Source of the DNA: an uncultured Victivallales bacterium
GTDB taxonomy: Bacteria > Verrucomicrobiota > Kiritimatiellia > UBA8416 > CAZWPN01
Reading direction: 5' to 3'
Assembly (NCBI GenBank): GCA_964635275.1
Contig: CAZWPN010000004.1
Span: forward strand, 502 to 64,501
Length of the DNA stretch: 64,000 bases
Below, piece after piece: positions 1 to 50,905 of this stretch. How positions within the stretch are numbered: the stretch's first letter is position 1; each line of letters starts with the position of its first letter. Both the position numbers and the translations under genes were made by a program. Under the pieces are notes generated by a model. It made no database searches, was not told the DNA's origin, and saw only the letters and a list, made by a program, of their open reading frames with translations.

Positions 1-228
1 TACAGCAGCTCCGCGCTCCTATTTGTAGCCACGGCAGTCTCTGCCCTGCTCCGCGCTCTCTGTGCCTCTGTGAGAGTTCTTCCGTAACTTATTCTGAAGA
101 TCACGCCGCTTGCAGCCGTCTAAGGAATGACTACAATGCCGTCAAGACGTGCGGCATGGATGTCGCGGGGCGGATATCCGGCTCTGCCGGGCCGTCGAGC
201 GGATCGCAGGACTACAGGGGGAATGACC

Positions 229-6339: not shown

Positions 6340-6815
6340 ACGCCGGATCGGCATATCCGGATATTTTGAACGCCGAAGGTAGCGAAGGCAGCAAAGGGGT
6401 GGGAAGGCATGCCGGCTATCCAATGGCGGCGATAGTCGGACGACCGGAGGTGATGGATGCAGCCCAGCGCAGTTTCATCAGCAGCACTTTCTGGACCGAC
6501 CGGATAGGACCAGCCGCCGCCATCGCCACTATCCGCAAGTGTCTGCACCACGACGTAGAGCGGCACCTGACGGATACCGGCATTCGTGTGCAGAAGGGCT
6601 GGCAATCGGCGGCGGATGCCGCCGGGCTCGCCATTCACGTCGGCGGAATTCCCGCGCTCAGCCATTTCGGCATTGACGGAAAGGAAGCAAATGTGGCCCG
6701 AACATACTTCACTCAGATCATGCTGGAAAGCGGGTTCCTGGCCGGCACCGGTTTTTACCCGATGCTTGCGCACACGCCAGCCATTTGCCCGCCCCAAAGC
6801 GAGGATCAGGATTGA
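6340..6815 (+). pseudogene. Class-III (PLP-dependent) aminotransferase, C-terminal remnant only
   Basis: Homology to aminotransferase class III begins abruptly near the SKGVG/ISSTFWTD region, about residue 270 of a ~430-aa enzyme, immediately after the A2M stop codon. No N-terminal two-thirds is encoded upstream in any frame. Confidence 0.5.
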
Positions 6816-6854
6816 GCCCCTTGCATAAACTCGCCATTTCGCTACACTGTCGGC

Positions 6855-7616: not shown

Positions 7617-8401
7617 AAGTGTTGGCGATCGCCGTCGTCGTATGGCTCGACAGCCTGCGGCGGAAGGACGTGTACGTGCTCCTTGTGATGCTGGCCGGGC
7701 TTCTAGTCGCTCTGGGCTCGATAGACCTGTTCGGCCTCGGCGGCGCCGCACTATATGTGCTGGATATAGGCCTTCTGTTCTGCTGGCTGTTCGGATGGAT
7801 ACTCGCCATAAACGCCGGCTGCCGCGAACTGCCGCAGGAGGAGAGCCGCGGGACAGTATACATGCTTCTGGCAAAGCCGGTTAGCCGACTGGAACTGGTT
7901 GCAGGGAAGTGGCTTGGCGCCTGGAGTGGCGTAGTCACTGCTATGCTCCTATTCTACGCGGCCACGGCACTGCTGGCCCTTGTGCGTGGGGCGACGTTCA
8001 GCGTGCACACCCTAATCCATGCCTGGCTTCTGCACGCTGTTGCAATGGCCATTCTAACGGCGCTCGGCATGGCCGTGTCGACACGCCTCAACAGAGACGC
8101 AGCCACGACGCTCGCCGGCGTGCTGAGCGCCGCTGCATTCGTCCTGGTACCGCAAGTCCCTGAACTGGTGATGCACGGCGCGCCATGGACGCAGACCCCG
8201 CTGATCGCCGTGTATTTTCTGCTGCCGCACCTGGAACTGTTCGACATCCGTCAGCAAGTCGTCCATGGCCACACCGGACTGGATTTCCGGACGCTCCTGG
8301 CCTTGGTTGCTTACGGTATGACCTGTGCCGCAGCACTGGTTATGGTAGCCTGGCTGGCATACCGGGAGAAGCGATTCGATCGGGCCGCACTGACGGAGTG
8401 A
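7613..8401 (+). CDS. ABC-2 family transporter permease
   Basis: Polytopic hydrophobic protein. Its start overlaps the ATPase stop (ATGA), indicating translational coupling. Confidence 0.75.
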   Translation: MKVLAIAVVVWLDSLRRKDVYVLLVMLAGLLVALGSIDLFGLGGAALYVLDIGLLFCWLFGWILAINAGCRELPQEESRGTVYMLLAKPVSRLELVAGKWLGAWSGVVTAMLLFYAATALLALVRGATFSVHTLIHAWLLHAVAMAILTALGMAVSTRLNRDAATTLAGVLSAAAFVLVPQVPELVMHGAPWTQTPLIAVYFLLPHLELFDIRQQVVHGHTGLDFRTLLALVAYGMTCAAALVMVAWLAYREKRFDRAALTE

Positions 8402-16790: not shown

Positions 16791-18292
16791 TCACGAAGCG
16801 GTTCATGGCAGTAGACCTTGGCGCCTCGGGTGGAAAGTGCTTTGTCGGCACATTTGAGCAGGCCGGCTTCCACATGAAGGAAATCCACCGATTTCCCCAT
16901 GAAGGCGTGAACTTCCACCTGCCAGACGGCAGTGGCGCAATCTCCGAGCGGGCCCACTGGGACGATACTCACCTCTACCGCAACATCGTCCTCGGCCTGG
17001 AATCATGCCGCCGCGACGTCGGCCCCGCCTTGGACGGCATAGGAATTGACACCTGGGGCGCTGATGGGCAGTTCTTTAGCGCGGACGGCGAACTCCTCGC
17101 AAAGATCTACTGCTACCGTGACCACCGGCTAGACCGGATGATCGAGCAGGTCAAGGCGCGTATTTCGGCGCGCCGTGTCTACGAGATCACCGGCATCCAC
17201 TTCCAGCCATTTAACGTCAGCAACCAACTCCTGTGGTGGATGCAGAACCGCAAGGACCTGCTTCGCCCGGGCTGCTTCTATCTCCCGATCCCATCCGTAT
17301 TCTACTTCTATCTCGGCGGCGTGAAAGCCGTTGACTCCTCTTGGGCCAGCGTTACCCAGCTCATGGATGCACAACGCAAGTGCTGGAGCCCAGAGATCCT
17401 TGCCGCATTGGGCATCCCGCAGGAAGTCCTTCCAGCCATCGTCGCGCCCGGAACCGTTGTCGGCCGCATGACCGCACCGCTCGCCAAGGCTATCGGATTG
17501 AATGAGGTTCCGCTGATTGCAGTTGGCGGACACGACACGGCAAGCGCCTTTGCTGCCGCCCCGGTGGACAATACAGATGACGCCCTTATCATCAGTTCAG
17601 GCACATGGTCGCTCGTCGGCAAACTGATTCCTGTTCCTATCACCAGCGAAGCCGCAATGGCGGCGAACGTCAGCAACGAAGGCGGTATCGGTAACGTCAG
17701 GTTCCTGAAGAACTGCATGGGACTGTGGCTCGTTCAGGAACTCCGGCGCGGCTGGCGCGCAGCAGACGGAAAGGAACTGTCATGGGACGAAGTCGGCCGA
17801 TTGATCGAATCGGCAAAGCCGTTCACGGCCTTCGTGGACCCTGACGACTCATCTTTCTACAACCCCGCCAGCATGGAGAATGCCTTCGCGGAGTTCTGCA
17901 GGAAGACGGCGCAACCAATTCCGGCGGATCGTGGAACATTCCTGCGGGTCGCCATGGAGAGCCTTGCACTCAAATATCGAATGGTGAACGAACAGATTTC
18001 GGCTGTGTGCGGGAAGCCCTCGAAGGTCGTTCACATCGTGGGTGGCGGAAGCAAGGACAAGCTCCTCAACCAGTTTGCCGCTAATGCAGTCGGGCTGCCG
18101 GTCCTGGCTGGACCCGAAGAGGCAACGGCCGTCGGAAACCTGATGGTTCAAGCCATGGCCTCTGGTGTGATTCGCTCACTCCACGAAGCCCTGCCCATCA
18201 TCCGCAAGGCGTTTCCCATTGGCGAGTACCGCCCACAGAACGCAGAAGAATGGTCTGCGGCGTATGGCCGCTTCCGACGTATTGTGGGGTAG
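16787..18292 (+). CDS. rhaB: Rhamnulokinase (FGGY carbohydrate kinase)
   Basis: FGGY motifs AVDLGASGGK, GGHDTASAF and GTWSL. The start ATG overlaps the aldolase stop (ATGA) and is preceded by a GGAGGG RBS; the upstream extension of the ORF-track entry (16424) is discounted. Confidence 0.85.
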   Translation: MITKRFMAVDLGASGGKCFVGTFEQAGFHMKEIHRFPHEGVNFHLPDGSGAISERAHWDDTHLYRNIVLGLESCRRDVGPALDGIGIDTWGADGQFFSADGELLAKIYCYRDHRLDRMIEQVKARISARRVYEITGIHFQPFNVSNQLLWWMQNRKDLLRPGCFYLPIPSVFYFYLGGVKAVDSSWASVTQLMDAQRKCWSPEILAALGIPQEVLPAIVAPGTVVGRMTAPLAKAIGLNEVPLIAVGGHDTASAFAAAPVDNTDDALIISSGTWSLVGKLIPVPITSEAAMAANVSNEGGIGNVRFLKNCMGLWLVQELRRGWRAADGKELSWDEVGRLIESAKPFTAFVDPDDSSFYNPASMENAFAEFCRKTAQPIPADRGTFLRVAMESLALKYRMVNEQISAVCGKPSKVVHIVGGGSKDKLLNQFAANAVGLPVLAGPEEATAVGNLMVQAMASGVIRSLHEALPIIRKAFPIGEYRPQNAEEWSAAYGRFRRIVG

Positions 18293-18528
18293 CGAATAGC
18301 CAAGCAGCGACGCGCCTAAGAAGACGTCTCTGGCTACCAGGCTTTGCCCCAAGTAGCCCGCGACCTGCGTGCAACTCATGCCATGAGTCACAAGCATCAC
18401 TCCGTGGAGCCGATGGTCGCAGCGAGACTCTTCAGAGCGCTGAATCTCCTGCTACACGGCAATCTGCATGCTCTGGCAATCCGCCACTTCGAGCTTGCGC
18501 ACTGCAACACGAATACGGAAGCGTTCTA

Positions 18529-19263
18529 CTAGGGCCGATTTGCGGCGATAACATCCTCATTGAAGCAGGCCCTCACGCTTTGCCCCGGCGGCACAACCAG
18601 AAAGTCGTCATTCCACTTACCGTCCACCAATCGCTGGAGCAGGTCAAGCGATCCATGCAATACGTCGAAGGTCCAGCCCCGTTCCGCCGCCTCGCCGCGC
18701 GCCTGCTCCTGAAAACGGTCATCCTGCGCGAGCCCCATGTGGATAAATGTCAGGCGAGAGTAGTTCTGCACCCAGGCACCCATTGTCTCGGCGATATACC
18801 GGGCATTCTCCTCCCCATACTGCTCGACGAGTTTATCGTACTGGGTGGACATGCCAAGCTTCTGCTGGATATTGATCTCGCCGGCTCCCTCGGAGTCCGC
18901 ATGCTCAATCCAGCCGCTGGTCCGATAGTAGGTTCCGGGGTTCGCGTCGAAATAGGCCCGGTATTTTCTGCGATCCCCCATGAACAGCGTCATGCAATCA
19001 TGGGCCTTTGGTATGACGAGCGGCGCGTTTCGTGCGGTCAGTCCCGCCAAGCCATTGTTGCACAAGCCATAGGCTAGCAACACCGCCGAACAACTTTCCG
19101 GAACGGCGTCCACACTGGTCTGAATCCGGGCAAGCATCCGTTCCGCCCCCAGGTCGTGCAACCCCTTCGGCAGAAACTCCAGGTCACAGGTCGATGGAGT
19201 TCCGGCTACCAGGTGACAGATCTCTCGAAAGAAGACTTCACAGGCCAGGACCTTATATCTCAT
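18529..19263 (-). CDS. Hypothetical protein (possibly DUF1638-like)
   Basis: Clean 244-aa ORF opposite an artefactual + ORF. The N-terminal MRYKVLACEVFFREI pattern is reminiscent of DUF1638, a family I recall as often adjoining corrinoid methyltransferase systems; I cannot verify this. Confidence 0.45.
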   Translation of the reverse strand: MRYKVLACEVFFREICHLVAGTPSTCDLEFLPKGLHDLGAERMLARIQTSVDAVPESCSAVLLAYGLCNNGLAGLTARNAPLVIPKAHDCMTLFMGDRRKYRAYFDANPGTYYRTSGWIEHADSEGAGEINIQQKLGMSTQYDKLVEQYGEENARYIAETMGAWVQNYSRLTFIHMGLAQDDRFQEQARGEAAERGWTFDVLHGSLDLLQRLVDGKWNDDFLVVPPGQSVRACFNEDVIAANRP

Positions 19264-19374
19264 CGCACCCTCCGAAGAACGATCGCGGGAGTCTAGCAGT
19301 CACCATGAGACACAGCAATTCCCATTATGGCGGCGCCCCCGCGCGCCCTTTTGTAGTGGGAACGCGCAAGGCGA

Positions 19375-19488
19375 CAAGGGGACACGACATAATGAGAATT
19401 GCCAACGGAGGCAGGGCAAGTCATTTCGCACGGATCTGGCCGTCAGAAAACTCTTGTTTCTCTGACAGGGGACACGACATAATGGGAC
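19375..19488 (+). promoter_or_regulatory. Two 20-bp direct repeats (AGGGGACACGACATAATG) 91 bp apart upstream of hup
   Basis: Exact repeat seen at 19377-19394 and 19468-19485. Each contains a CATAAT -10-like hexamer. Confidence 0.4.
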
Positions 19489-19542
19489 CGTGGTTCGGGA
19501 TAGTCCCGGGCGCACGTACCTCAACAACAAATAGGAGCGGGC

Positions 19543-19815
19543 ATGACAAAGTCTGAGACGGTTGCAGTTCTCGGCGAAAAATCGGGTCTGACCAAGGTTC
19601 AAGTCGATGGCTTGTTGGACGCACTGGCCAACCTGGCGTATGCCGAGGCAAAGAATGGCTTCGCCATCCCCGGCATCGGCAAACTGGTTCTCGTGCAGCG
19701 TGCGGCAAGGGCGGGACGTAACCCAGCCACAGGCGAGACAATCCAGATACCGGCAAAGACGGCAGTCAAGTTCCGCGTCGCCTCAGCTTGCAAGGAGGCA
19801 GTGTTGAAGGCGTAA
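19543..19815 (+). CDS. hup: DNA-binding protein HU
   Basis: 90 aa with the HU/IHF fold signature (GFAIPGIGKLVLVQRAARAGRNPATGETIQIPA). Confidence 0.9.
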   Translation: MTKSETVAVLGEKSGLTKVQVDGLLDALANLAYAEAKNGFAIPGIGKLVLVQRAARAGRNPATGETIQIPAKTAVKFRVASACKEAVLKA

Positions 19816-27910: not shown

Positions 27911-29638
27911 ATGACCGCGGAGTCACAAGTCCGGAAGATCATCTGGCCAGCGGGAGAGAACCTGGCCGGAAGCGTCTTGCAGTTCGGCGCAGCGGCCATG
28001 GTGGCTGTCGCAGTCCTCGCGGCGTTCGCATGGTTCCGGTTTGCGGGCATACACGACTCTCATGCCATGGAGCAGTGCAGCCTGGCGCGCAACCTGGCTG
28101 AGGGGAAGGGATTCAACGCAACCTGTGTCCGCCCTGCCGAGATCGCCATTCTGCAGCGGAGCGGCCGAGTGGTTGATCTCCGCCGTTTCCCGGATATCCG
28201 ACAGGCGCCGGCCTACCCTGTAGCGCTGTCAGGCGCCATGCGTCTCGTTCACCCACGAAACGAAGCGCATCCCAGGTCCGGAATATTCCGCCCGGAAACA
28301 GCGTTGGTCGTCCCATTCGGCATACTTTGCACACTGGCCAGCGCGGCACTGGTCTACCTGAGCGGCAGGAAGTGGTTTTCGGACGAAACCGGACAGACTG
28401 CCGCTGTCGCATTCCTCATCTGGGAGCCGGTCCTCGCGGCAAGCATCTCCGGCGGCAGCCTGCCATTCCTCACCTTCACGTTCTCTCTAAGCCTCTGGCT
28501 TGCTGTCACCGCCGCCAACGCCTGCAACCAACAACGATCCGCCGCATTGTGGGCACCCGCCTTTGCCGCCGGGGGCTGCCTCGCCGGCGTCACCTTCCTC
28601 GGTGCCTACGTGCTCTGGCCCCTGATTCCCGGCATGGCATTCCTGAGCGCCTGCCTGTGCGACAGGCGGCGGGGGATCGCCTTCGCAATCACCCTTGCGG
28701 CAGGCGGCCTCGCGATTGCACCATGGCTGCAGCGCAACCTCGCGGTCGCCGGTCATCCCCTCGGATCGGCCCCCTGGTCACTGCTGAACGGAACCTCACT
28801 GTTCACAACGGGTGGATGGGACGCCGCCATGGCCGCCCTGCCTGTCCGATCGGAGATGGTCGCCGCAATTCAGGCCAAGTTCATGGCCAACATCCCGATT
28901 CGAATCGAATCGATCTTCCTTCTGATGGGCGGCACAGTACTGGCCGCATTCTTCTGTGTGGCTTTCTTCATTCGCTTTGACAGTGAATCCGCCAACCGTT
29001 CCCGCTGGCCTGTTCTGGCAATGCTGGCGGCGGTCCTGATCTCAAGCGCCTTTGGCGATGAACGGTCCGCCTTGCACCTCCGCGTCTTTCTGCCGCTGGC
29101 CGCCGCATTCGGTACTGCCGCAGTCTTTGTCATCGCGGAGCACCGTGACTATCTGCTGCCCGCAACCCGTTCGCTGATTGTCTGGAGCGTGGTCGGGCTG
29201 AACGTGCTGCCCCTGGTTCTCAAGGTGTGGGGAACTGCCCCTGTCTCTCCATACCCTCCATGCTTTGCGCCGCTGAACACATATGCAGCGAAGCAGCTCC
29301 ATGATTCGGAAGTTCTTTGCACGGACATACCGTGGGCCACGGCATGGTATGCCAACCGGCTTTCCATCCTGGTACCCGAGAGCGTGAACATGCTCGAAAA
29401 GCTGCGCGCTACTTTCCCGTCGATCCAAGGGCTGTACCTCACTACCGAAACCAAGCGTGGCGCGTCCGTCACCCATGGAAAGACTACTGAAGAAAGCGAT
29501 TGGGGCCGCTTGCTAGCTGGGTGGGTGCCTTCCGGTTTCCCTATGACCAACGGCTTCCGCCTGCCGCCGGGGACCCGTGACCAAGTACTCCTGTTCGACG
29601 GATCACGACAGACTGGCATCCCTGCCGTCAGTCCATGA
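27911..29638 (+). CDS. Polytopic membrane protein, GT39/PMT/ArnT-like glycosyltransferase fold (putative)
   Basis: More than 10 hydrophobic helices. An N-terminal loop (HAMEQCSLARNLAEGKGF) resembles GT-C family 39/83 mannosyltransferases. Confidence 0.5.
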   Translation: MTAESQVRKIIWPAGENLAGSVLQFGAAAMVAVAVLAAFAWFRFAGIHDSHAMEQCSLARNLAEGKGFNATCVRPAEIAILQRSGRVVDLRRFPDIRQAPAYPVALSGAMRLVHPRNEAHPRSGIFRPETALVVPFGILCTLASAALVYLSGRKWFSDETGQTAAVAFLIWEPVLAASISGGSLPFLTFTFSLSLWLAVTAANACNQQRSAALWAPAFAAGGCLAGVTFLGAYVLWPLIPGMAFLSACLCDRRRGIAFAITLAAGGLAIAPWLQRNLAVAGHPLGSAPWSLLNGTSLFTTGGWDAAMAALPVRSEMVAAIQAKFMANIPIRIESIFLLMGGTVLAAFFCVAFFIRFDSESANRSRWPVLAMLAAVLISSAFGDERSALHLRVFLPLAAAFGTAAVFVIAEHRDYLLPATRSLIVWSVVGLNVLPLVLKVWGTAPVSPYPPCFAPLNTYAAKQLHDSEVLCTDIPWATAWYANRLSILVPESVNMLEKLRATFPSIQGLYLTTETKRGASVTHGKTTEESDWGRLLAGWVPSGFPMTNGFRLPPGTRDQVLLFDGSRQTGIPAVSP

Positions 29639-29653
29639 CAACTTCCGCGCCAT

Positions 29654-30934
29654 TCAGGCACTCCAAAGAGCCGCCGCCATCGCGCGGATATGTGCCGGCG
29701 TCGTGCCGCAGCACCCGCCCAGGATGTCGGCTCCTGCCGCTCTGACCTGCAGGGCGTACTCCGCCATAATGGCCGGTGTCTGGGGAAACACGTCGCGGCC
29801 ATCCACGTGGACAGGAGCGCCTGCATTCGCATGGACAATGACTGGGACTCCAGGCACTGCCGCGCGAATGTCCCTGACAATATCGACCATACGATCCATT
29901 CCGTTTCCGCAATTGGTGCCGACAATGTGGGCTCCAGCCTCCACCATGGCCAACGCCATCTCTCCGGGGGCAACACCCATCATCGTCCGGTACTGGCCGT
30001 GCACCGTCCGCTCGAAGGTGAATGTGCACAGAACCTCGAGTCCCGTGTTTTCGCGTGCCGCCTTCACGGCCAACGCACCCTCGTCCAACGCGGCGAACGT
30101 TTCGATCAAGCAGGCGTCAGCACCGCCGGCCTCGAGCGCCTTTGCCTGATCCCGGAAAGAGGCATAAAGCTCATCCTCGGAGACATCACCCATCAGCAAC
30201 ATCTTCCCCGTAGGCCCCATGGATGCAATGACATGACGGTCCGGCCCGGCCGCCTCTCTCGACAACCGGGCGGCCGCATGGTTGAGCTCCGCCACGCGGT
30301 CCTGAAGCCCGAAGTGAAGCAGCTTGAAACACGATGCCCCGAAACTGTTCGTTTTGACCATCTCAGCGCCGGCATCGACATACTGCCGAGCAACGTCCCG
30401 AACCGCATCGGAATGCTCAACGCACCAGAGTTCTGGACACTCGCCGGGCTTCAATCCCTTTTGCTGAAGGATCGTGCCCCAGCCTCCGTCCGAAATCATT
30501 ACCTTCCCGTCCTTCAACTTGTCCACAATACGCTTCATCCCTGCCTCCATGGGAATCGCCCTGGAGGCGCTTGCCGCCAGAGCCCGCCTTATCTCCGCCA
30601 AGAGAACATCTGACGACTGCGTCTTGGACACGACCGCAACGCCAGGATAGCGCAGATGAATATCGTGCAAATCCGCCCGCGCCGTGAAAACGACAACGGG
30701 GATAGGCCGGGCCACGCGAGTCGCCATGACGCTCAGGAACGTGAACCCATTCATCCCGGGCATGTTGACGTCCAGCAGCACCAGATCCACATGGTGCCGG
30801 GACACATGCCGCAGGCCATCGTCTGCATTGTGGACCGCTACAACCTCATAGCCATCGAATCGCAAACGATCACCCACCGCCATCGCTATGCGGGCGTCGT
30901 CGTCAATAAACAGAACTACCGGCTTGAGACGCAT
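29654..30934 (-). CDS. Response-regulator receiver domain fused to homocysteine S-methyltransferase (Pfam S-methyl_trans, MetH N-terminal-like) domain
   Basis: REC: VLFIDDD...LVLLDVNMPGMNGF...VVFTARAD. Methyltransferase: ISDGGWGTILQQKGL...AGAEMVKTNSFGAS...GTNCG...GGCCGTTPAHI, i.e. the zinc-binding Cys triad as in MetH. Likely start MRLKPV at 30934, after a GGGTGGA RBS. Confidence 0.75.
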   Translation of the reverse strand: MRLKPVVLFIDDDARIAMAVGDRLRFDGYEVVAVHNADDGLRHVSRHHVDLVLLDVNMPGMNGFTFLSVMATRVARPIPVVVFTARADLHDIHLRYPGVAVVSKTQSSDVLLAEIRRALAASASRAIPMEAGMKRIVDKLKDGKVMISDGGWGTILQQKGLKPGECPELWCVEHSDAVRDVARQYVDAGAEMVKTNSFGASCFKLLHFGLQDRVAELNHAAARLSREAAGPDRHVIASMGPTGKMLLMGDVSEDELYASFRDQAKALEAGGADACLIETFAALDEGALAVKAARENTGLEVLCTFTFERTVHGQYRTMMGVAPGEMALAMVEAGAHIVGTNCGNGMDRMVDIVRDIRAAVPGVPVIVHANAGAPVHVDGRDVFPQTPAIMAEYALQVRAAGADILGGCCGTTPAHIRAMAAALWSA

Positions 30935-31049
30935 AACATCCACCCTACCCGCAGGCATGGTACAGCGAGTCTCCGCGCTCCGCCACAAGAAAAAAGACCC
31001 TGGCAACCCGCAGGTCGCCAGGGTCTCATATTCGATCCGTCGTACGGTC

Positions 31050-31685
31050 CTATTTCTTCAGCAGGGATTTGGCCAAGTCCGCAGCCGACGCCGCATCAGG
31101 AGCGTACCCGTCTGCCCCGATCTCATTGCAGAAAGCCTGAGTCACCGGAGCACCGCCTATTATGACCTTTGTCTTGCCAGCGAGGTCCGATCCCTTGACA
31201 GCCTCCACAACGGCTTTCATGTTTGTCATGGTGGTTGTCAACAGGGCCGAGATACCGATAATGCTCACGCCATGGTCGCGAGCCGCCTGAACGAACTTCT
31301 GGGGATCCACGTCGATGCCAAGGTCCATGACCTTGAAGCCAGCCCCTTCCAGCATCATGCCGACCAGGTTCTTGCCAATGTCGTGAAGGTCACCCTTCAC
31401 CGTCCCGATCGCCGCCACTCCAATCGGCTGCACACCGGCCAAGGTGAGTTTGGGCTGCAAAATGCTCATGCCCGCCTTCATGGCGCGTGCGGCGATGAGA
31501 ACTTCTGGAACATAGACCTCGTTCTTCTTGAACCGTTCGCCAATCACGCTCATGCCGGACAACAAACCCTCGTTCAGAATCTTTGACGGCGCAATCCCCT
31601 CGCTCAATGCCTTTTCCACCAACGCCTTCACGTCGTTGGCCTTCCCCTTCATCAAACTTTCGGACATGCTCACAAGAACGCTCAT
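31050..31685 (-). CDS. Corrinoid (cobalamin)-binding protein, MtbC/MetH B12-domain type
   Basis: B12-binding cap plus Rossmann fold with the DxHxxG motif (GDLHDIGKNLV), followed by S-x-L and GG motifs. A GAAGGAG RBS lies 6 nt before the ATG at 31685. It sits immediately upstream of the REC-methyltransferase on the same strand. Confidence 0.8.
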   Translation of the reverse strand: MSVLVSMSESLMKGKANDVKALVEKALSEGIAPSKILNEGLLSGMSVIGERFKKNEVYVPEVLIAARAMKAGMSILQPKLTLAGVQPIGVAAIGTVKGDLHDIGKNLVGMMLEGAGFKVMDLGIDVDPQKFVQAARDHGVSIIGISALLTTTMTNMKAVVEAVKGSDLAGKTKVIIGGAPVTQAFCNEIGADGYAPDAASAADLAKSLLKK

Positions 31686-31828
31686 TCGATCTCCTTCACT
31701 TGACTCCAAACGTGCTCGGCAGCACCCATCGCGCTGCGACACCACACGCCGGACAGGTGCGTACCATACGCTATACCCCACTAGCACACTAGCAAATTGC
31801 ACAAGACAACTATAACGATTATGCTGGT

Positions 31829-33088
31829 TTGCAGATAAATAATGTGGCAACTATACGCAGGTACGGCGATTTCAAGGTCCTCGCTATGGCGATTCTGTCA
31901 CGAAGGTTGATGGGCGATGTGGCGCGCGAGTACCAATCCATTTTCGGATTGAAGCCCGCATTCCTTAGTCTGTCCGGCGGCGTGCTGCATGGGTCCGAAC
32001 CCATCGGAGCCGGCCCTGCCGGGCGGCGCAAGCGGCACACTGCCCTCCAGGAAAGCATCAGCACCGGCGAGCCTTGCGTGTTCCATCCGCTGCCAGGAGT
32101 GACTTCGTGGATACTGGCGCTGGAGGATCACCGCCTGATCCACGGTGCGGCTGTGGCTGGCGAGATCCTCACGGACCAGGGCAAAGGGCAGCGAAGTGGA
32201 GCAGTCGACTATCTCGTCTCACACGGTTGGGATGGCGATGCGGCAAAGACCGTCGGCAACAGACTGGCCGTCTGGCCTGAGGTTCGTGTGCGTGAAGCCG
32301 CCGTCGGCCTTGGTGATGTCTTCTACCGCATCAGCGGATGGAAACCGCTTCTGATGACCGAGAACCGCCTGAAAATACGGCAGCAGAAGCAGATCAGCCA
32401 GTCGATTGACGACTTGCGTCGCAGCGGCCGCCCCGCGCTTTATGCCTTCGAGAAAGAACGCATGTTGCTCACGCATATCCGGGCAGGCGACCGTCCTGCC
32501 GCCCGCCAGATACTCAATGAAATGCTGGCCACCATATTCCTCTCTTCGCCGCAACAGGTCGTGTTACGTGCACGGGCCATCGAGCTGGTCAGTTACCTGA
32601 CTCGTGCCGCGATCGAAGACAACGCATTGCTGGAACCGCTCATCGAGCGCAACCACGCATGGACGGAAAGGCTGGTGAGGGCGCGCAGTTTCGAGGAACT
32701 CTCAAGGATTATTTCGAGCGCCATGGACGACTTTATGGATGCGATCGACCTTCATGGAATGAACCGTACCAATACCAAGGTGCGTGCGGCGCTTGACTAT
32801 ATTGGCGAACACTATGGCAAGAAACTGTCCCTGCGCTACCTTGCCGCACATGTCGGTCTCAGTCCATCCCGACTGTCACACCTCGTCCGCAACGTCACCG
32901 GCAAGTCGCTGACGGAGGTTACCCAGCAGGTCCGTATCCGCCACGCGCAACACCTCCTGGAGCGGACAGACCAAAGTTGCACTGAGATAGCCTACGAGGT
33001 GGGCTACAACGACCAGAGCTACTTCATTAAGCACTTTCGCCGTCTGACAGGAACCACACCGCTGAAATACCGCCAACACCGCCCTTAG
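31829..33088 (+). CDS. AraC family transcriptional regulator (start possibly 31886)
   Basis: C-terminal AraC-type double HTH (SLRYLAAHVGLSPSRLSHLVR...YFIKHFRRLTGTTP). It is divergent from the corrinoid operon. Confidence 0.8.
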   Translation: MQINNVATIRRYGDFKVLAMAILSRRLMGDVAREYQSIFGLKPAFLSLSGGVLHGSEPIGAGPAGRRKRHTALQESISTGEPCVFHPLPGVTSWILALEDHRLIHGAAVAGEILTDQGKGQRSGAVDYLVSHGWDGDAAKTVGNRLAVWPEVRVREAAVGLGDVFYRISGWKPLLMTENRLKIRQQKQISQSIDDLRRSGRPALYAFEKERMLLTHIRAGDRPAARQILNEMLATIFLSSPQQVVLRARAIELVSYLTRAAIEDNALLEPLIERNHAWTERLVRARSFEELSRIISSAMDDFMDAIDLHGMNRTNTKVRAALDYIGEHYGKKLSLRYLAAHVGLSPSRLSHLVRNVTGKSLTEVTQQVRIRHAQHLLERTDQSCTEIAYEVGYNDQSYFIKHFRRLTGTTPLKYRQHRP

Positions 33089-35217
33089 ACAGACTGAGAG
33101 TCGTCACCGTCGGGATCCACCTCATCCAGCGCCTCAATAACCATGGCCGTCTGCTGTAGCTGCGACCAGAGTCGAGTCAGGTTCGCCTGAAAGATGTCGA
33201 CGACTTCCGGGTCGAATTGTCGTCCACGGCCCTCGACAATCTGCCGGACAATCTCGTCCCGCCGCATCCCCTTGCGGTAAATCCGGTTCGCGCACATGGC
33301 ATCGTAGGCATCGGCCAACGCAAAAACCCTTGCTAGCAACGAAATATCAGTTCCCTTCAGACCGAATGGATAGCCGCTGCCGTCGTACCGCTCATGGTGC
33401 TCAAGGACAACATGGGCTGCCCCGCTCAGCGTCCGGAATGGCTTCAGCATGGCATAGCCGATCTGCGGGTGTGTCCGCATGATCCCCCACTCCTCGTCGG
33501 TGAACGCCTCGCTCTTGTTGAGAACAACGTCCGGTATGCCCAGCTTGCCGATATCGTGCAGCAAAGCGCCCTCGGCCAGGTCGGAAAGCTCATCCTGCGT
33601 CATGCCCATGGCGCGGCCCAGCGAAACCGCCATGCGCCTGACATTCTCACAATGCACACGAATTCCCGGTTCGTGCGCCTCCAGAATCGTAATAAGCATG
33701 TCGGTGATCGACTGGACGTCCTGGGCAACCGCCACCGTCAATGGCGCGATATCCGCCTCATTCTTTTCCCGCCGAAGCGACTGAAGCGATACCGAGCCGG
33801 TATGCCCGTCACCGGAGAGAGCAAAGACGCAATCGCGGCCCTGTTTCTTTGCGCCATACAGGGCCCTATCCGCCCGATGCATCAAACGGTCACTCTGAAG
33901 CGTCAGGGTCTCCTGAGCCGTAACAGCTGAAACCCCGACAGAAACCGTGACCCTTAAATTCGCTGTGTCGCGGCAGAACACATGTTGCCGGACCCGTTGT
34001 ATGAGGTCGTCCGCTCGGCTTCGGGCCTGGTCCACATCCGCGCCAGGCATGATCATCACCAGTTCGTCACCCCCGTACCGGGCCGAGACGTCCCGGTCGC
34101 TCGCCACCTCACGCATCAGTGTGGCCAGCTCTTGAAGAATCATGTCGCCCACAGGATGCCCATAGGTATCGTTCAGGCTCTTGAAATGGTCGGCATCAAG
34201 AACAAGTATACCAACGGACTCTCCCTCCTGCCGGGCCGCCGCCCAGATCCTACGGATGGCGTCGCGGAGACCGCGTACATTGTACAGTCCCGTCAATCCA
34301 TCCGACAGCGCCTGGTGCTGTATTCGGCGAAATGCCACCAGCACCGTGGAAACATGATTGGCAGCGTGGTAAAGGAAGAGCAGATCGGTTTCAGCGTAAG
34401 CAACGCCCGGTTCCAGGCCAAGCGTTAACAGGCCATGAATCTCTCCTCCGGCAACAACGGGCACCGTTGAACACTGAGATGGAGCCGATTGCCCGTCAGA
34501 CCGGTCCGTGAGCCCCTCGGTCTGCACCGTGACGCCACCCTCCATCGCATGCCCGCTCAGCGCCCGGTATCGCTCCAACATATGGTCCCTCAACAGCCCC
34601 ATGTACGCAACTGTGACCGGCTTGAGGGCATAGAGAACCATGCTGGGCTTTTCGTCCTCAATTGAAAAGATCCCAACGGCGGCGGCGTTGAACCTCTCCG
34701 CCAATCCTCCGCTTAGCGCGCGAAGGGCCTCGGCCAACGTGCCAGACCGAATCGCCACCGTCGTCAATTGCCGGAGAATGCGCAGTTCGGATTCCAGGTG
34801 TTGCAGAGAAAACGGAACAGAACGCGCCAGATGCTCACGGCCCTTCCGGACTTCCTCCATAACCCTGGAGACCAACTCCTGACGCTCAAACGGTTTGAGG
34901 ACAAAACTCCGCACGCCGAAGCGCTCTGTCTGCTCGCGGGCCTCGGGCGTTAGGTGCCCCGTGACAACCACAATGCCCATCCACGGCCACATCTTGAGCG
35001 CCACTTCCAGGAAGGCGATGCCGTCCATTCCGCTCATCCGCAAGTCCACGACAACCACGTCGAACTCTTGTAGGAGGAGCGCCTGCAGCCCTTCGCGGCC
35101 ATCCTCCGCCATCTCCACGACGCAGCCCGCATTCCGAAGTATGCTCGCCATCAGCTGGCGTATCGGTGCCTCGTCATCAATGACCAGTGCGCGAACCTGA
35201 CTCGTTTTCTCCGCCAC
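33085..35217 (-). CDS. Response regulator with REC, sensory middle region, GGDEF (GGDEL variant) and HD-GYP domains
   Basis: REC (VIDDEAP...VVVDLRMSGMDG); GGDEF domain (DGLTGLYNVRG...LDADHFKSLNDTYGHPVGD...RYGGDELVM); HD-GYP (HDIGKLGIPD...HHERYDGSGYP). Confidence 0.8.
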   Translation of the reverse strand: MAEKTSQVRALVIDDEAPIRQLMASILRNAGCVVEMAEDGREGLQALLLQEFDVVVVDLRMSGMDGIAFLEVALKMWPWMGIVVVTGHLTPEAREQTERFGVRSFVLKPFERQELVSRVMEEVRKGREHLARSVPFSLQHLESELRILRQLTTVAIRSGTLAEALRALSGGLAERFNAAAVGIFSIEDEKPSMVLYALKPVTVAYMGLLRDHMLERYRALSGHAMEGGVTVQTEGLTDRSDGQSAPSQCSTVPVVAGGEIHGLLTLGLEPGVAYAETDLLFLYHAANHVSTVLVAFRRIQHQALSDGLTGLYNVRGLRDAIRRIWAAARQEGESVGILVLDADHFKSLNDTYGHPVGDMILQELATLMREVASDRDVSARYGGDELVMIMPGADVDQARSRADDLIQRVRQHVFCRDTANLRVTVSVGVSAVTAQETLTLQSDRLMHRADRALYGAKKQGRDCVFALSGDGHTGSVSLQSLRREKNEADIAPLTVAVAQDVQSITDMLITILEAHEPGIRVHCENVRRMAVSLGRAMGMTQDELSDLAEGALLHDIGKLGIPDVVLNKSEAFTDEEWGIMRTHPQIGYAMLKPFRTLSGAAHVVLEHHERYDGSGYPFGLKGTDISLLARVFALADAYDAMCANRIYRKGMRRDEIVRQIVEGRGRQFDPEVVDIFQANLTRLWSQLQQTAMVIEALDEVDPDGDDSQSV

Positions 35218-36980: not shown

Positions 36981-37055
36981 TGGTGGGCACTAGAGGATTT
37001 GAACCTCTGACTTCTTGCGTGTGAAGCAAGCGTTCTCCCACTGAACTAAGTGCCC
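36981..37055 (-). tRNA. tRNA-Val (anticodon CAC), CCA encoded
   Basis: Cloverleaf read directly from the sequence: acceptor GGGCACT/AGTGCCC, D-stem GTTC/GAAC, anticodon arm CTTGC-TTCACAC-GCAAG, T-arm AGAGG-TTCAAAT-CCTCT, then A + CCA. Confidence 0.85.
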
Positions 37056-37331: not shown

Positions 37332-38555
37332 CTATGAGGTCTGTAGAAGGGACACGTCCACGCGTTGCGTGCGCTCATCGAGCAGTTTGGCAAGGTAATC
37401 CGCGAGATCCCGTTCGTACTCCGTGTCCAGGTTGGCGTGCACCAACTGCTTGTCAATGACCAACCACCCATCGTCACCAACCTCAGCCTCCCGCGCCGTG
37501 GCGTAACGTTTTGCCGGGTCGGGATCAAGAAACCGCGAAATGATGCCGACCAATTTGCGGTTGGCCAGCACATACGCCGGCAGCATGTCGGGAAGCCTCT
37601 CCTGCAGGTGGAGTTTGAGATCCAGAAGATCGGCCTCGGCTATCCCATCGTCCGACGTCAGTGGCTCGCCACGCAGAAGCTCCAGCGCCACCAGCCCCAG
37701 GCTGTAAAGATCCGAACGCATATCCGGCGGCTGCCGCCGATGGCCCTCCGGCGACATGTACAGGGGAGACCCAAGGAGAAACGATTGATGTTCCCCAATC
37801 ATCACGGCGCGGCCGAAGTCCACCAGGCGGACGGTTCCCAGTCGGTCAAGCATGATGTTCCCCGGCTTCATGTCGGAATGAAGGAAGTTCATCTCATGCA
37901 AGCGTTCCAGTCCCTGCAGCGCCTCGCGCATGATGAAAACGACAAAACCTGGCTGAAAGCACATGCGATCGCCGTCCAATCGAAACAGTGGGCGTATCAA
38001 CTTGTTCCACTCGCGCGCGCCACACTTCCGGCGGACAATCTCCAGATGATCCTTCCGCAGCAACCTGCCCAGATCGATTCCGTTGATGGCCTCCATCTGG
38101 ACATACCCGATACCGTACGTTTCCTCGTAGGAGTAGCTCCACACCAGGTTAGGACAGTGTACTCGCTCCAGCTTGGAAACCTGCGAGGCGATTCGCCCCA
38201 TGTCAGTCCAATACTCTTCGGGAGAGCGATAGAGATCCGGATCAAACACCTTGATGGCGTGCTCGGTAATGCAGCCGCGCGCGCCCTGCCGCAGCGCAAG
38301 AAACACCTGTCCCTGCCGCCCGCGCCCCAATTGATAAAGAAACTGGTATGCCACCGGATAGTAGATGGCCTTCGACTTCACGATGGTTGCGTAGTTGTGC
38401 CTGAGTTGGTCCATGGTCATGCGAACAGCGGGCGGCTGACCATTTGAGCTGACCGGATGCAACGACATCCCCCCCTGCTCCGCGCCGGTGAGATCGATTA
38501 TGGCGACATCCCTCTCTGTGCTCTTGATTTCCATGCGTCTGAGATAGTAGACCAT
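37332..38555 (-). CDS. Serine/threonine protein kinase with ~200-aa uncharacterised C-terminal region
   Basis: Hanks kinase motifs: GRGRQGQVF (P-loop), HSDMKPGNIML (catalytic loop), DFG, SPE. The start is probably MVYYLRRMEIK (38555 or 38534), since the longer ORF-track N-terminus is hydrophobic junk. Confidence 0.75.
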   Translation of the reverse strand: MVYYLRRMEIKSTERDVAIIDLTGAEQGGMSLHPVSSNGQPPAVRMTMDQLRHNYATIVKSKAIYYPVAYQFLYQLGRGRQGQVFLALRQGARGCITEHAIKVFDPDLYRSPEEYWTDMGRIASQVSKLERVHCPNLVWSYSYEETYGIGYVQMEAINGIDLGRLLRKDHLEIVRRKCGAREWNKLIRPLFRLDGDRMCFQPGFVVFIMREALQGLERLHEMNFLHSDMKPGNIMLDRLGTVRLVDFGRAVMIGEHQSFLLGSPLYMSPEGHRRQPPDMRSDLYSLGLVALELLRGEPLTSDDGIAEADLLDLKLHLQERLPDMLPAYVLANRKLVGIISRFLDPDPAKRYATAREAEVGDDGWLVIDKQLVHANLDTEYERDLADYLAKLLDERTQRVDVSLLQTS

Positions 38556-38691
38556 CCGTGCACGGGTTACACCAAAAAACAAGAATCTCGATTGCGACAG
38601 TTCTCCTTGACGTCCACGGGGTGTTTGTGGATACTGAGCTGTTGGGTCAAGACAGACAAGACGTTTGACAACAACTCCGAGAGGGGCCATC

Positions 38692-39099
38692 ATGAAGAAG
38701 GTGATTCGCAGCAAGAAACCTGTACAAACAACCCGAGCGAAAAAAACGAAAGCCCGTTTGCCAATCCGCAAGACAGTAGTCCCAGCGACTCAAGAGAAGG
38801 CAACCCGGAAACCGGCTCGCCGAAGGGCGGCGTTCGAAACCCAGGTTTTGCCCTTGCAGATGCGGACCGAACCGGCGCAGTTGCTGACGTTTCCAACGCT
38901 CCCTTCCATACCGACGCCACCGGCCGCCACACCAAAACACACACAGGAAGACATCCGCAGCCTGATTGCGCGAGAGGCATACTTCCTGGCCGAGAAGGAT
39001 GGGTTCCGAGGGGATCCCGCCGCTTACTGGGTGGAGGCGGAGATCCAGGTTCTGGCTTCGCGGGAAAGCCGCACCGAGCGCGTCTCCTGCGGCGGTTGA
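38692..39099 (+). CDS. Lys/Arg-rich hypothetical protein with C-terminal DUF2934-like motif
   Basis: Strong RBS (GAGAGGGG) before the ATG at 38692. C-terminal IAREAYFLAEKDGFRGDPAAYWVEAE matches the DUF2934 signature. Confidence 0.55.
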   Translation: MKKVIRSKKPVQTTRAKKTKARLPIRKTVVPATQEKATRKPARRRAAFETQVLPLQMRTEPAQLLTFPTLPSIPTPPAATPKHTQEDIRSLIAREAYFLAEKDGFRGDPAAYWVEAEIQVLASRESRTERVSCGG

Positions 39100-46647: not shown

Positions 46648-46722
46648 GGTGGGCCCAGCTGGGGTCGAACCAGCGACCAGAAGATTATGAGTCTCCTGCT
46701 CTGACCAACTGAGCTATGGGCC
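46648..46722 (-). tRNA. tRNA with anticodon CAT, most similar to tRNA-Ile2 (lysidine) / elongator Met; CCA encoded
   Basis: Cloverleaf: acceptor GGGCCCA/TGGGCCC, anticodon loop CTCATAA. The body is very close to E. coli ileX (GGCCCxxAGCTCAGTGGTtAGAGCAGGxGACTCATAATC...GGTCGCTGGTTCaAgTCCAGC), and it is not initiator-type. Confidence 0.8.
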
Positions 46723-46780
46723 CGTTACTCAGGCGGGGATTATCAAGCCACCGCCCAACGCTTTCAAGACTAAAGACGCA

Positions 46781-48268: not shown

Positions 48269-50905
48269 CTAGGCCCTCTTTCCGATAACGACGTCCTTGA
48301 GCAGATTGACAAGGGCATGGTATTCGAACGGCTTCTGCACAAACCCCGCCAGTTTCGTACCGCCGAACCTGCGGCACGCCTCGCTCTCGTTGTAGCCGCT
48401 GCAGAGAACCACCTTAACATCGGGCCGGATGCAAAGCAGTTGCTCGAATGTCTGCTCTCCATTCAGTCGGGGCATCGTAAGGTCCAGCAAAACCGCGACC
48501 ACCGAGTCTGCATGCTCCCTGAACTTATCCACAGCATCCTGACCGTCCACTGCAGTGACAACGCGGAACCCTATCTTCTCCAGAATCATACGTGAGATGC
48601 TCCGCATGGACTCCTCATCGTCCGCAACCAGAATAGTCCCTGATGCTTGCCAGAAATGAGCCCCCGTGATGATCGACTGCGGCAGATGCTCAATTTCCTT
48701 TTCCGACAAAGGCAGCAGGACCTTGAACGTCGACCCCCTGCCCGGTTCGCTGTAGACATGGATTGCGCCCCGGTGTCCGCGGACAATTCCGAGCACCGCC
48801 GCCAAACCCAGACCGCGCCCGCTCGCCTTGGTAGTAAAGAAGGGGTCAAAGATACGCCCCCTGGTCTCCGCGTCCATTCCGCAACCTGTATCCGACACCT
48901 CAAGAAAAGCGTATGCACCCTCCTGAAGCCCCTCGTTGATGTAAGTCTGAGACAGATAGTTCCTGTCGGCATCGACAATTCCGGTGCGTATGGTGATGGT
49001 TCCCGGCGTATCGCCAATCGCGTCCGATGCATTGGTAATCAGATTCATCAGAATCTGGCGGAACTGCGCCACGTCCACCTCAACGCTGGGCAGTGTTTCG
49101 GCCAGATCATACCGCACAATGGCCTTCTTGCTTATCGAGACCTGGAGAAGGTTGGCCATCTCTCTGACAATCAGATTGAGGTCCACCACCTTGATTACGA
49201 ACTTACCCTTACCTGAATAGGCCAGCAACTGCGACGTCAAATCCGACGCACGGACTGCGGCTCTCTTGATCTCCTCAACAAACGAATACCCGGGAGCTGA
49301 CTGTTCCATGTCCTGCAACGCTAGATCGGCATTGCCCATCACCGCCACAAGCAGATTGTTGAAGTCGTGGGCAATCCCACCGGCAAGGATCCCCAGGCTC
49401 TCCAGCTTTTGCCCCTGAACCATCTGCTGATGCAACTGCCTCTTGTCAGCCTCAACCTGCCGGCGCACCGTAAGATCACGGAACACCATCTGCAGCAGAA
49501 CTTCGCTGCCCATCGTGACCATGGACAGATTCATCTCAGTCTCGACGATAGACCCGTCGAGACGCCGGCACCGCCACTCTGCCACCGACGCCCCCTCGCT
49601 CCGCACCTTATCCATCAGGGCATCCCACAGGGCACGCGACTCCTCGCCCTCAGCTTGCATGGGCGGCAAAAGAGAGGCAAACGGGTGACCGACGATCTGT
49701 TCGCGACTCCCGCCAAACAGGGCCATCGCCCGTGTATTGCAATCCATCACCTGCTGGTCCTTCAGGACTACGAGGGCATCGCCGGCGTTCTCAAACAACG
49801 CGCGGTACCGCCGTTCGTTGTCCCGCAATGACTCCTCCGCCTTCTGCAAATCCCCCAGCATTCGATTGACATCCTCGCTCAGAAGGCTGATTTCGTCTTT
49901 CCCTACCACCGGCAAGCGAATCGCCATGTCCCCTGTCTTCCCGATCCGGCTCATCGTCTCGGCTATCCGGCTGATGCGTGAAACCACCATGGTCTCCAGA
50001 ACACCGAGCACAAGTAGCAACAGGGCAACACCGGTAATACCAACAGATAACATCGCCAAACGGACCGCGCGAAGGCCCTGCTTCATGACTTCGCGCGGCA
50101 GGCTGGCCCGCAGAAGGAGCGCCGCCTGCCCATCCACATCCGACAGGGTCGTATACGCCTTAACCCACTCGGGCGAGCTTCTGTCAAGGTGGTTTGGCGT
50201 CTCCGGCGATATCATGGAAAGCGCCTTCCCGATCCCGCCTGGTAGACCGCTCTCTCTCAGCGGCCAGATATCGAGCGGAATCTGCAATTCCCGCACAAAC
50301 CCCGACAAAACCTGCGCCGTGATCCGCCGGCCCACAATGACGCTCCCAGTAATACGCTCAACGCCGCCCTCTGAAGTAGCAATTGGATGCGAGGCCACTG
50401 CCATCGTTTCGCCTGAAACCACCACCAAACCAGCAGTGCGGTCCCGCGGACCGGCAAAAGTAGTGAACCGTGGCAGAAGCGAGTTCACGACGTCCGGGTT
50501 GAGCTGCGCGACATCCGCACTGTCGGCCCCGCATTGTCCCTGCCAGACAACCTCGCCTCCCTCGCCAACGTAGAGGATCATGTCGACGCGGTTGTCGTAG
50601 AAAACCGAGGGGGGAAAACAGGCGCCGATCTGAGCCCGCTCACGATTGGCCAACAGCAGACGAACATCCCGAAGCGTCGAACAATGGAATGCCACCGCAC
50701 CGACCCGGTCAACCTCGCGACGGAACGCCTCCTGACAGCGGGCGATGTCCCGCTTGGCGCTCTCCTGCTCCAGACGGACGAAGTTCGGAACGACTACCAG
50801 CCGGTTTAACCCGTACTCGAGCACCCCGTAGAAGACGAAGACTGCTAAGACGACAAGGGCTATACGCAATCTGAGCATATGGAGACGTTTCTTCTTGTCA
50901 AACAA
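48269..50905 (-). CDS. Hybrid sensor histidine kinase (TM + extracytoplasmic sensor, PAS, HisKA, HATPase, C-terminal REC)
   Basis: H-box AHDFNNLL, ATP-lid DTGCGMD...GRGLGL, and a C-terminal REC (ILVADDEE...LDLTMPRLNG). Confidence 0.85.
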   Translation of the reverse strand: MFDKKKRLHMLRLRIALVVLAVFVFYGVLEYGLNRLVVVPNFVRLEQESAKRDIARCQEAFRREVDRVGAVAFHCSTLRDVRLLLANRERAQIGACFPPSVFYDNRVDMILYVGEGGEVVWQGQCGADSADVAQLNPDVVNSLLPRFTTFAGPRDRTAGLVVVSGETMAVASHPIATSEGGVERITGSVIVGRRITAQVLSGFVRELQIPLDIWPLRESGLPGGIGKALSMISPETPNHLDRSSPEWVKAYTTLSDVDGQAALLLRASLPREVMKQGLRAVRLAMLSVGITGVALLLLVLGVLETMVVSRISRIAETMSRIGKTGDMAIRLPVVGKDEISLLSEDVNRMLGDLQKAEESLRDNERRYRALFENAGDALVVLKDQQVMDCNTRAMALFGGSREQIVGHPFASLLPPMQAEGEESRALWDALMDKVRSEGASVAEWRCRRLDGSIVETEMNLSMVTMGSEVLLQMVFRDLTVRRQVEADKRQLHQQMVQGQKLESLGILAGGIAHDFNNLLVAVMGNADLALQDMEQSAPGYSFVEEIKRAAVRASDLTSQLLAYSGKGKFVIKVVDLNLIVREMANLLQVSISKKAIVRYDLAETLPSVEVDVAQFRQILMNLITNASDAIGDTPGTITIRTGIVDADRNYLSQTYINEGLQEGAYAFLEVSDTGCGMDAETRGRIFDPFFTTKASGRGLGLAAVLGIVRGHRGAIHVYSEPGRGSTFKVLLPLSEKEIEHLPQSIITGAHFWQASGTILVADDEESMRSISRMILEKIGFRVVTAVDGQDAVDKFREHADSVVAVLLDLTMPRLNGEQTFEQLLCIRPDVKVVLCSGYNESEACRRFGGTKLAGFVQKPFEYHALVNLLKDVVIGKRA

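Follow-up and report, generated by a model that had tools for sequence, protein, structure and literature searches.

In the split methionine synthase, a three-part enzyme, the homocysteine-binding methyltransferase (PF02574) and the cobalamin-binding protein (PF02607+PF02310) are encoded by separate genes, and this set of modules has been shown genetically to act as methionine synthase in P. inhibens (PGA1_c13370, c13350 and c16040; Price et al. 2018, PMC5764234) and in Ruegeria pomeroyi (Mausz et al. 2025), where the modules are named, in the same order, MtgE, MtgC and MtgD and where the corrinoid and pterin modules serve glycine betaine demethylation too (PMC12478193). Furthermore, DUF1638 is cofit with the split enzyme in P. 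inhibens (PMC5764234). Other systems that invite comparison are the single-chain MetH of T. maritima (1q7m) and E. coli, and MtaABC, MtgABC and the O-demethylases, in which a stand-alone corrinoid protein carries methyl groups between two methyltransferases. There are also response regulators in which a receiver (REC) domain is joined to an enzyme, among them CheB (REC-methylesterase), PleD and WspR (REC-GGDEF) and RpfG (REC-HD-GYP). The locus reported here lies in a stretch of 64,000 nucleotides, hereafter the window, from an uncultured Victivallales bacterium (GenBank assembly GCA_964635275.1, contig CAZWPN010000004.1, positions 502 to 64,501), and consists of a gene for a stand-alone corrinoid protein (31050..31685(-), 211 aa) followed by a gene (29654..30934(-), 426 aa, or 434 aa from ATG 30958) in which a REC domain is fused in frame to a homocysteine methyltransferase (MT) of the MetH type, as judged from Pfam and NCBIfam models.

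As in the split methionine synthase, the PF02574 and PF02607+PF02310 modules are separate genes, and the likeness extends to a PF00809 pterin methyltransferase in syntenic relatives of the locus, to DUF1638 in this genome and to a RACo/RamA-like activator beside other members of the MT family. In contrast to that system, the homocysteine module carries a REC domain, which is undescribed there; a pterin module is lacking both from the locus and from the 64 kb as a whole; and the organism is of another phylum, with a divergent AraC-family regulator and NCBIfam scores below the equivalog cut-offs. Moreover, whereas function was shown genetically there, that of the present locus is predicted from sequence. 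With MetH it shares the homocysteine barrel with its Cys3 zinc site and the B12 cap and B12 domain with the DxHxxG motif; unlike in MetH, the modules are on separate polypeptides, the folate and S-adenosylmethionine-reactivation domains are missing and a REC domain sits on the homocysteine module. The methylotrophic systems resemble it in their free corrinoid carrier, in the best NCBIfam matches of the corrinoid protein, which are MtgC and MtbC, and in the URO-D neighbours of some MT relatives, but the acceptor here is a MetH-type homocysteine barrel and not MtaA or a pterin module, and the window holds no substrate methyltransferase. Finally, the REC-enzyme regulators have the same order of N-terminal canonical receiver, short flexible linker and catalytic domain, and the same general logic of an enzyme under phospho-control; they differ in that the output here would be a B12-dependent methyl-transfer module docking a separate carrier, and in that no conserved family exists.

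The longest open reading frame (ORF) of the fusion gene, 29654..31006(-), has 450 aa from TTG 31006, a codon that sits in a hairpin described below, so that the true start is probably ATG 30934 or ATG 30958; JGI calls the former (426 aa), NCBI and Logan the latter (434 aa). Both include the REC domain (30563..30934(-), aa 1-124), which was delimited by Pfam, residue mapping and AlphaFold2 (AF2) modelling. The Response_reg profile (PF00072) matches aa 31-138 of the 450-aa ORF with E 1e-17 and 64.7 bits (cut-off 30.2), covering profile positions 1-109 of 111. Its active-site residues are D11/D12/D13, with D11/D12 as the acidic pair, the phospho-acceptor D55 (codon 30770-30772), T84 and K104, which align with D12/D13/D57/T87 of CheY and with the conserved Lys of 13 REC homologues, and an AF2 model built on a 14-sequence alignment (pLDDT 87.8, pTM 0.83) shows the canonical (beta-alpha)5 order. 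Together, residues and model support a bona fide receiver and not a pseudo-receiver. The GC content of the REC part by codon position, 0.70/0.41/0.70, is like that of the MT part.

The origin of this receiver was sought in the window and beyond. A copy of a neighbouring regulator was considered and discarded: tblastn against the window returned the domain itself only, the next match being 29% identical (E 0.01). No close relative was found in a word-indexed search of 5.8 billion proteins, in which the best match, P0121, is 36% identical, and a pattern scan of metagenomes was swamped by the generic DVNMPGMN motif, with partial matches of at most 43%.

Behind the receiver, a linker of eight residues (30539..30562(-), aa 125-132, SRAIPMEA-G) is predicted to be disordered, with pLDDT below 50 at residues 125-130 in the full-length AF2 model and at residues 127-132 in the REC model. 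It is followed by a predicted homocysteine-binding zinc methyltransferase of the MetH type with a TIM-barrel fold (29654..30538(-), aa 133-426). The S-methyl_trans profile (PF02574) is matched in full (profile 1-283/283; aa 170-447 of the 450-aa ORF, E 2e-65, 221.6 bits). The zinc ligands, C342 (in NCG) and C408/C409 (in GGCCGTTP), are invariant in our alignments A1 and A3, and the fused domain is unchanged at every position that is invariant across 13 stand-alone homologues. Among solved structures the homocysteine domain of T. maritima MetH is closest (1q7m, E 1e-39), with BHMT and MmuM behind it; the MT domain scores 243.5 bits against a cut-off of 338 in the betaine-homocysteine S-methyltransferase model NF005718, and 246.2 against 453 in the YitJ-type bifunctional MT/MTHFR model NF006396.

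The corrinoid protein, whose ATG is preceded by an AAGGAG Shine-Dalgarno site, consists of a B12-binding_2 cap (E 9e-22) and a Rossmann-type B12-binding domain (E 5e-26). It contains DLHDIG, an instance of DxHxxG, with His101 (codon 31383-31385), SAL at 146 and GG at 177, and its closest solved structure is 1y80 (E 8e-62). Against the MtgC models NF047996 and NF047995 it scores 218 bits where 370 are asked for and 190 where 310 are; by these profiles it is related to the glycine-betaine MtgC without being a member by the NCBI criterion.

An earlier note on this DNA, made from the letters only, had described the pair as a DxHxxG corrinoid protein and a protein with a canonical phospho-accepting REC domain at its N-terminus, and the profile searches agree, placing PF00072 and PF02574 on one ORF and both B12 domains on the other. 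Its reading of the C-terminal part as a zinc-dependent thiol methyltransferase holds good too, the type being that of MetH, with three Cys residues. The note had also taken the two genes for an operon. They are indeed co-directional neighbours, but a hairpin resembling an intrinsic terminator lies between them (30994..31027(-); 15-bp stem with 9 G-C pairs, 4-nt loop, then the T-run TTTTTTCTT), which makes a single operon doubtful. An equivalent hairpin with a T-run is found directly 3' of the corrinoid gene in three related contigs (L002 at ~7905-7945, L011 and L038) and ahead of the MT gene in a fourth (L004, ~14-50). Its conserved position across PVC relatives suggests that carrier and methyltransferase are expressed at different levels or transcribed as units of their own, and the pair is probably not a simple, equally expressed operon.

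At the junction, homology to the stand-alone MT relatives begins exactly at ATG 30538 (codon 30536-30538; MKRIV...), and the 396 nt before this ancestral start are the REC domain plus the linker, which holds a GGAGG Shine-Dalgarno site (30544-30548) in frame, 5 nt before the ATG. In the +1 frame a TGA overlaps the same ATG, and that frame is open for 17 codons upstream. Most simply, a gene for a single-domain response regulator would have arrived in the space from the hairpin to the MT gene, right in front of the MT start; its stop codon would have been lost later, and the segment now reads through into the methyltransferase. An enzyme of 294 aa without the receiver is probably still possible as a second product, from the retained GGAGG and ATG.

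An identical REC-MT protein is called in the JGI, NCBI and two Logan assemblies. The DNA is 100% identical in two contigs (L167 and L168, assembled from SRR12261225 and SRR35365923), and the contig of JGI 3300045131 (L001) has a single mismatch, outside the REC-MT gene. All these read sets represent one strain, and beyond that strain the architecture was not found. No fused or adjacent REC occurs among the 120 best homologues, nor in 80 GTDB species-level loci, examined for open frames upstream and with a REC hidden Markov model (HMM), and none of the 150 top-ranking representatives, out of 1.84 billion clusters at 50% identity, has a REC fusion. When the six-frame ORFs of 83 loci were searched with a custom REC HMM, no stand-alone REC came up within 600 nt upstream of the MT; two contigs (L071 and L039) have a small REC ~1.1 kb upstream, which is just 28% identical. 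A junction-centred search, for which the REC domain and the N-terminal 46 aa of the MT served as query, returned no two-domain protein, a weak negative since the parent protein itself was not returned, and one candidate second fusion, P0304, was rejected as its N-terminus was merely over-called. Full-text searches of the literature brought up no paper in which a receiver and this methyltransferase domain are connected. The architecture is thus as unusual as the earlier note had supposed, and the absence of a stop between the two in-frame domains, which it had made decisive, is seen in three independently assembled read sets.

N-terminal extensions of any kind are rare in the MT family, occurring in 3 of the 150 cluster representatives, none of them a REC. 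The domains fused N-terminally to S-methyl_trans in these proteins (P0196, P0217 and P0272) are the kinase-like AAA_33, LMWPc (low-molecular-weight phosphotyrosine phosphatase) and Virulence_fact. In addition, in a metagenome-assembled genome (MAG) of the Lentisphaerales (L042, ~5190-6843(+)), an ORF for a HypB/UreG-like GTPase is open in frame into the MT gene, perhaps a further case of fusion, or else a problem of assembly or of the stop codon.

The genomic context is best read from the relatives. In the nearest contigs of useful length (L002 and L003), where the MT is 68% identical, the flanks of the window are shared: genes for a PAS histidine kinase, a sigma54 response regulator and a 575-aa membrane protein border one side, that for the AraC regulator borders the other, and corrinoid, MT, Pterin_bind and ApbA genes are enclosed by them. 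The core of a divergent AraC gene followed by corrinoid, MT and pterin genes recurs in MAGs of Victivallales and other members of the PVC group (L011, L049, L038, L055 and L005), and in four contigs (L002, L003, L011 and L049) the pterin gene is immediately downstream of the MT. The pterin subunit of the relatives resembles methyltetrahydrofolate (methyl-THF):corrinoid methyltransferases (4o0q, MeTr). Unlike in the syntenic relatives, the pterin and ApbA genes are missing from the present locus and from the whole window, and tblastn with a relative's pterin subunit found no match in the 64 kb. The locus of L004 has the same pterin-less arrangement with an intact MT, and the MT is without a pterin neighbour in most of the 80 species-level loci. 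The earlier note had likewise seen no pterin-binding or substrate-methyltransferase partner in the window, in agreement with tblastn and Pfam. It had called the methyl donor unknown; given the conserved cluster of the relatives, the donor would most simply be a methyl-THF module encoded elsewhere.

Other members of the MT family keep different company. In Tichowtungia (L070:3944-6001(+)) the MT occurs with a corrinoid gene and a gene for a RACo/RamA-like activator, the latter between the two; in a Bacteroidales contig (L078:4871-5902(+)), with a corrinoid protein and a URO-D-type methyltransferase; and in Leptospirales (L047:6994-8969), with a Met_synt_B12 activation domain, URO-D and a corrinoid protein. 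By these neighbourhoods, the MT family appears to serve generally as the methyl-corrinoid:homocysteine end module, in combination with donor modules that differ from case to case, which suggests that interchangeable methyl-donor modules feed methionine synthesis.

Taken together, homology and synteny lend good support to a corrinoid protein and a MetH-type homocysteine methyltransferase, descended from a split methionine synthase cluster, with the donor module elsewhere; from the same evidence we infer that the chemistry at this locus would be that of methionine synthase, while a regulatory effect of the REC domain on methyl transfer is speculative. The combined reading, to which we give an even chance, is that of a trimmed three-part, cobalamin-dependent split methionine synthase in which phosphorylation of REC-MT adjusts methyl transfer. 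The corrinoid protein would bear the methyl group on the cobalt of its cobalamin (His-on, DxHxxG), and the Cys3 zinc site of the barrel would activate homocysteine and accept the methyl group from the methyl-corrinoid, giving methionine and Co(I). Re-methylation of the corrinoid would be the task of a module off the locus, which would have to be encoded elsewhere since the pterin module is absent from the locus, and which in the relatives would be the MeTr-like pterin-binding methyltransferase encoded directly downstream. Phosphorylation of D55 by a histidine kinase would then alter the way in which the barrel works with the methyl-corrinoid protein, by steric gating as in CheB or by phospho-dependent dimerisation, and an unregulated short form may come from translation that begins internally, at the Shine-Dalgarno site and ATG that were kept.

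A bolder version would make this the first two-component phospho-relay to work directly on the protein of a cobalamin-dependent methyl-transfer module, D55 phosphorylation gating the docking of barrel and carrier and so switching post-translationally, in response to an environmental signal, methionine synthesis or the way in which corrinoid-bound methyl groups are divided among methionine and other sinks; we consider it rather unlikely. Split modular B12 methyltransferases have recently been shown to share modules between methionine synthesis and osmolyte demethylation. To our knowledge, no mechanism has been described by which cells route a shared methyl-corrinoid pool. Were the proposal true, this branch point would have a direct post-translational switch in the REC domain of the homocysteine module, and response regulators would gain a new class of output. 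The locus further gives a clear picture of the way in which a fusion of REC and enzyme may originate, with a response-regulator segment reading through the ribosome-binding site and start codon of its target. The weight of all this is limited by its occurrence in one strain of an uncultured organism.

Several observations count against a regulated methionine synthase. The fusion is seen in a single strain, so that its copies say nothing on selection for a regulatory role, and the closest MT (L004, 82% identical) has no REC domain. The full-length AF2 model of REC-MT, with pLDDT above 90 for the MT and of 30-72 for the REC domain, does not show how the two domains are arranged, since relatives that co-evolve with the fusion do not exist and the alignment has no depth over the REC part. 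No partner kinase can be assigned: the adjacent pair of kinase and sigma54 regulator is also kept in relatives without the REC fusion. The pathway cannot be closed from the window, in which Pfam searches on nearly all ORFs found no pterin, URO-D, MttB or RACo gene. AraC regulators of the inducer type are not usual in methionine biosynthesis, and the one here may hint at a catabolic or other role. Finally, the retained GGAGG and ATG fit a recent and possibly neutral read-through.

This last point leads to the strongest of the rival explanations, that of a young and functionally neutral read-through fusion, which we hold to be doubtful and yet quite possible. A small stand-alone response-regulator gene would have been inserted after the corrinoid gene, ahead of the MT gene, and its stop codon would have gone, or else a 1-nt indel would have done away with an ATGA overlap of stop and start; the 294-aa MT made from the retained internal start would be the active enzyme, and the REC domain would be idle in methyl transfer, or serve only as a single-domain regulator. 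The intact ribosome-binding site and start inside the linker and the +1-frame TGA over the ancestral ATG are what such a history would leave behind, the restriction to one strain agrees with it, and so does P0121, the closest homologue of the REC domain, which is encoded after a histidine kinase and is a stand-alone receiver of 135 aa that ends just past the same LLAEIRRALA helix. The fold and five active-site residues of the REC domain are intact, though, its codon-position GC is that of the host gene, and the fusion is fixed in three sampled read sets. These points do not separate a neutral from an adaptive fusion, and the neutral explanation therefore stays strong.

If the pair belonged instead to another corrinoid methyl-transfer route, with a distant substrate methyltransferase and homocysteine or another thiol as the sink, or with a catabolism induced through AraC, then the REC domain would couple its flux to an environmental signal. 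Such a role would suit the inducer-style regulator conserved beside the cluster, the URO-D-type (MtaA/CmuA-like) methyltransferases that accompany the MT family in two contigs (L078 and L047), the best NCBIfam matches of the corrinoid protein, which are the methylotrophic MtgC and MtbC and not MetH, and the double service of the Ruegeria corrinoid protein in glycine betaine demethylation and methionine synthesis (PMC12478193). It is made improbable by the MT barrel, which is closest to MetH homocysteine domains, by the lack of a substrate methyltransferase in the window, and by the NCBIfam matches themselves, all of which are below the cut-offs. It is even harder to see a decaying remnant, non-functional after the loss of pterin and ApbA, in which the fusion would be a step of pseudogenisation: both genes of the relatives are missing here, and the pterin gene in L004 too, but both ORFs are intact, the invariant MT positions and the zinc and B12 motifs are kept, the MT of L004 is intact with no pterin gene next to it, the two-gene arrangement thus persisting over ~18% protein divergence, and a pterin gene adjoins the MT in only a minority of the 80 species-level loci; this is very improbable. 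Least probable of all, to the point of being negligible, is an indel of sequencing or assembly that joins two separate ORFs, which the short G and C runs at the junction and the ATGA stop/start overlap restored by a 1-nt shift might recommend, and which is excluded by the same junction in the independently assembled contigs from SRR12261225, SRR35365923 and JGI 3300045131, as well as in the NCBI record (434-aa call).

As regards the neighbouring genes, the AraC-family regulator is divergent from the corrinoid gene, as the earlier note had reported, and spans 31886..33088(+) with 400 aa from ATG 31886, the longest ORF beginning at TTG 31829; it is also called as a gene in the JGI contig. Its C-terminus matches HTH_18 (E 1e-25) and HTH_AraC in Pfam, and its N-terminal ~300 aa match no Pfam family even at E 5. 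It is 57% identical to the syntenic regulator of L002, for which a weak precomputed match to PocR exists. A PocR sensor domain in the regulator of the window was considered on that ground and rejected, there being no match at E 5. Convergent with the AraC gene, and overlapping its end by 4 nt, is a gene for a 710-aa REC-GAF-GGDEF-HD-GYP (HD_5) protein (33085-35217(-)), in whose place L002 and L003 have a PAS-GGDEF protein.

On the other side, the stop codon of the REC-MT gene directly precedes a convergent gene (27911-29638(+)) for the 575-aa multi-pass membrane protein, which has no Pfam match and whose homologue in L002 and L003 shows a weak match to PMT_2 (glycosyltransferase 39-like). This protein and the pair of kinase and sigma54 regulator are conserved neighbours of the methyltransferase cluster. 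Further signalling proteins encoded in the window, a Ser/Thr protein kinase 6 kb off (37332-38771(-)) and a CHASE4-HAMP-PAS hybrid histidine kinase with a C-terminal REC domain 17 kb off (48269-50905(-)), could not be linked to REC-MT.

The DUF1638-like gene that had been noticed at 18.5 kb is confirmed as a member of PF07796 (18529..19263(-), 244 aa, E 1.2e-37); it lies 11 kb away from the methyltransferase locus and forms no operon with it. Two long ORFs without family matches, with third-position GC of 0.53-0.55, overlap this genuine gene on the plus strand (18250-19556(+)), and gene picking by the longest ORF was misled there. Across the window no riboswitch or leader RNA reaches the gathering thresholds of Rfam, and around the locus no credible candidate appears even when E <= 1 is allowed. 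The only matches at the gathering thresholds are two tRNA genes (36984-37055(-) and 46650-46723(-)). Close to the start of the window, a gene at 127-6339(+) encodes a bacterial alpha-2-macroglobulin-like protein of 2070 aa with MG2, A2M and bMG10 domains.

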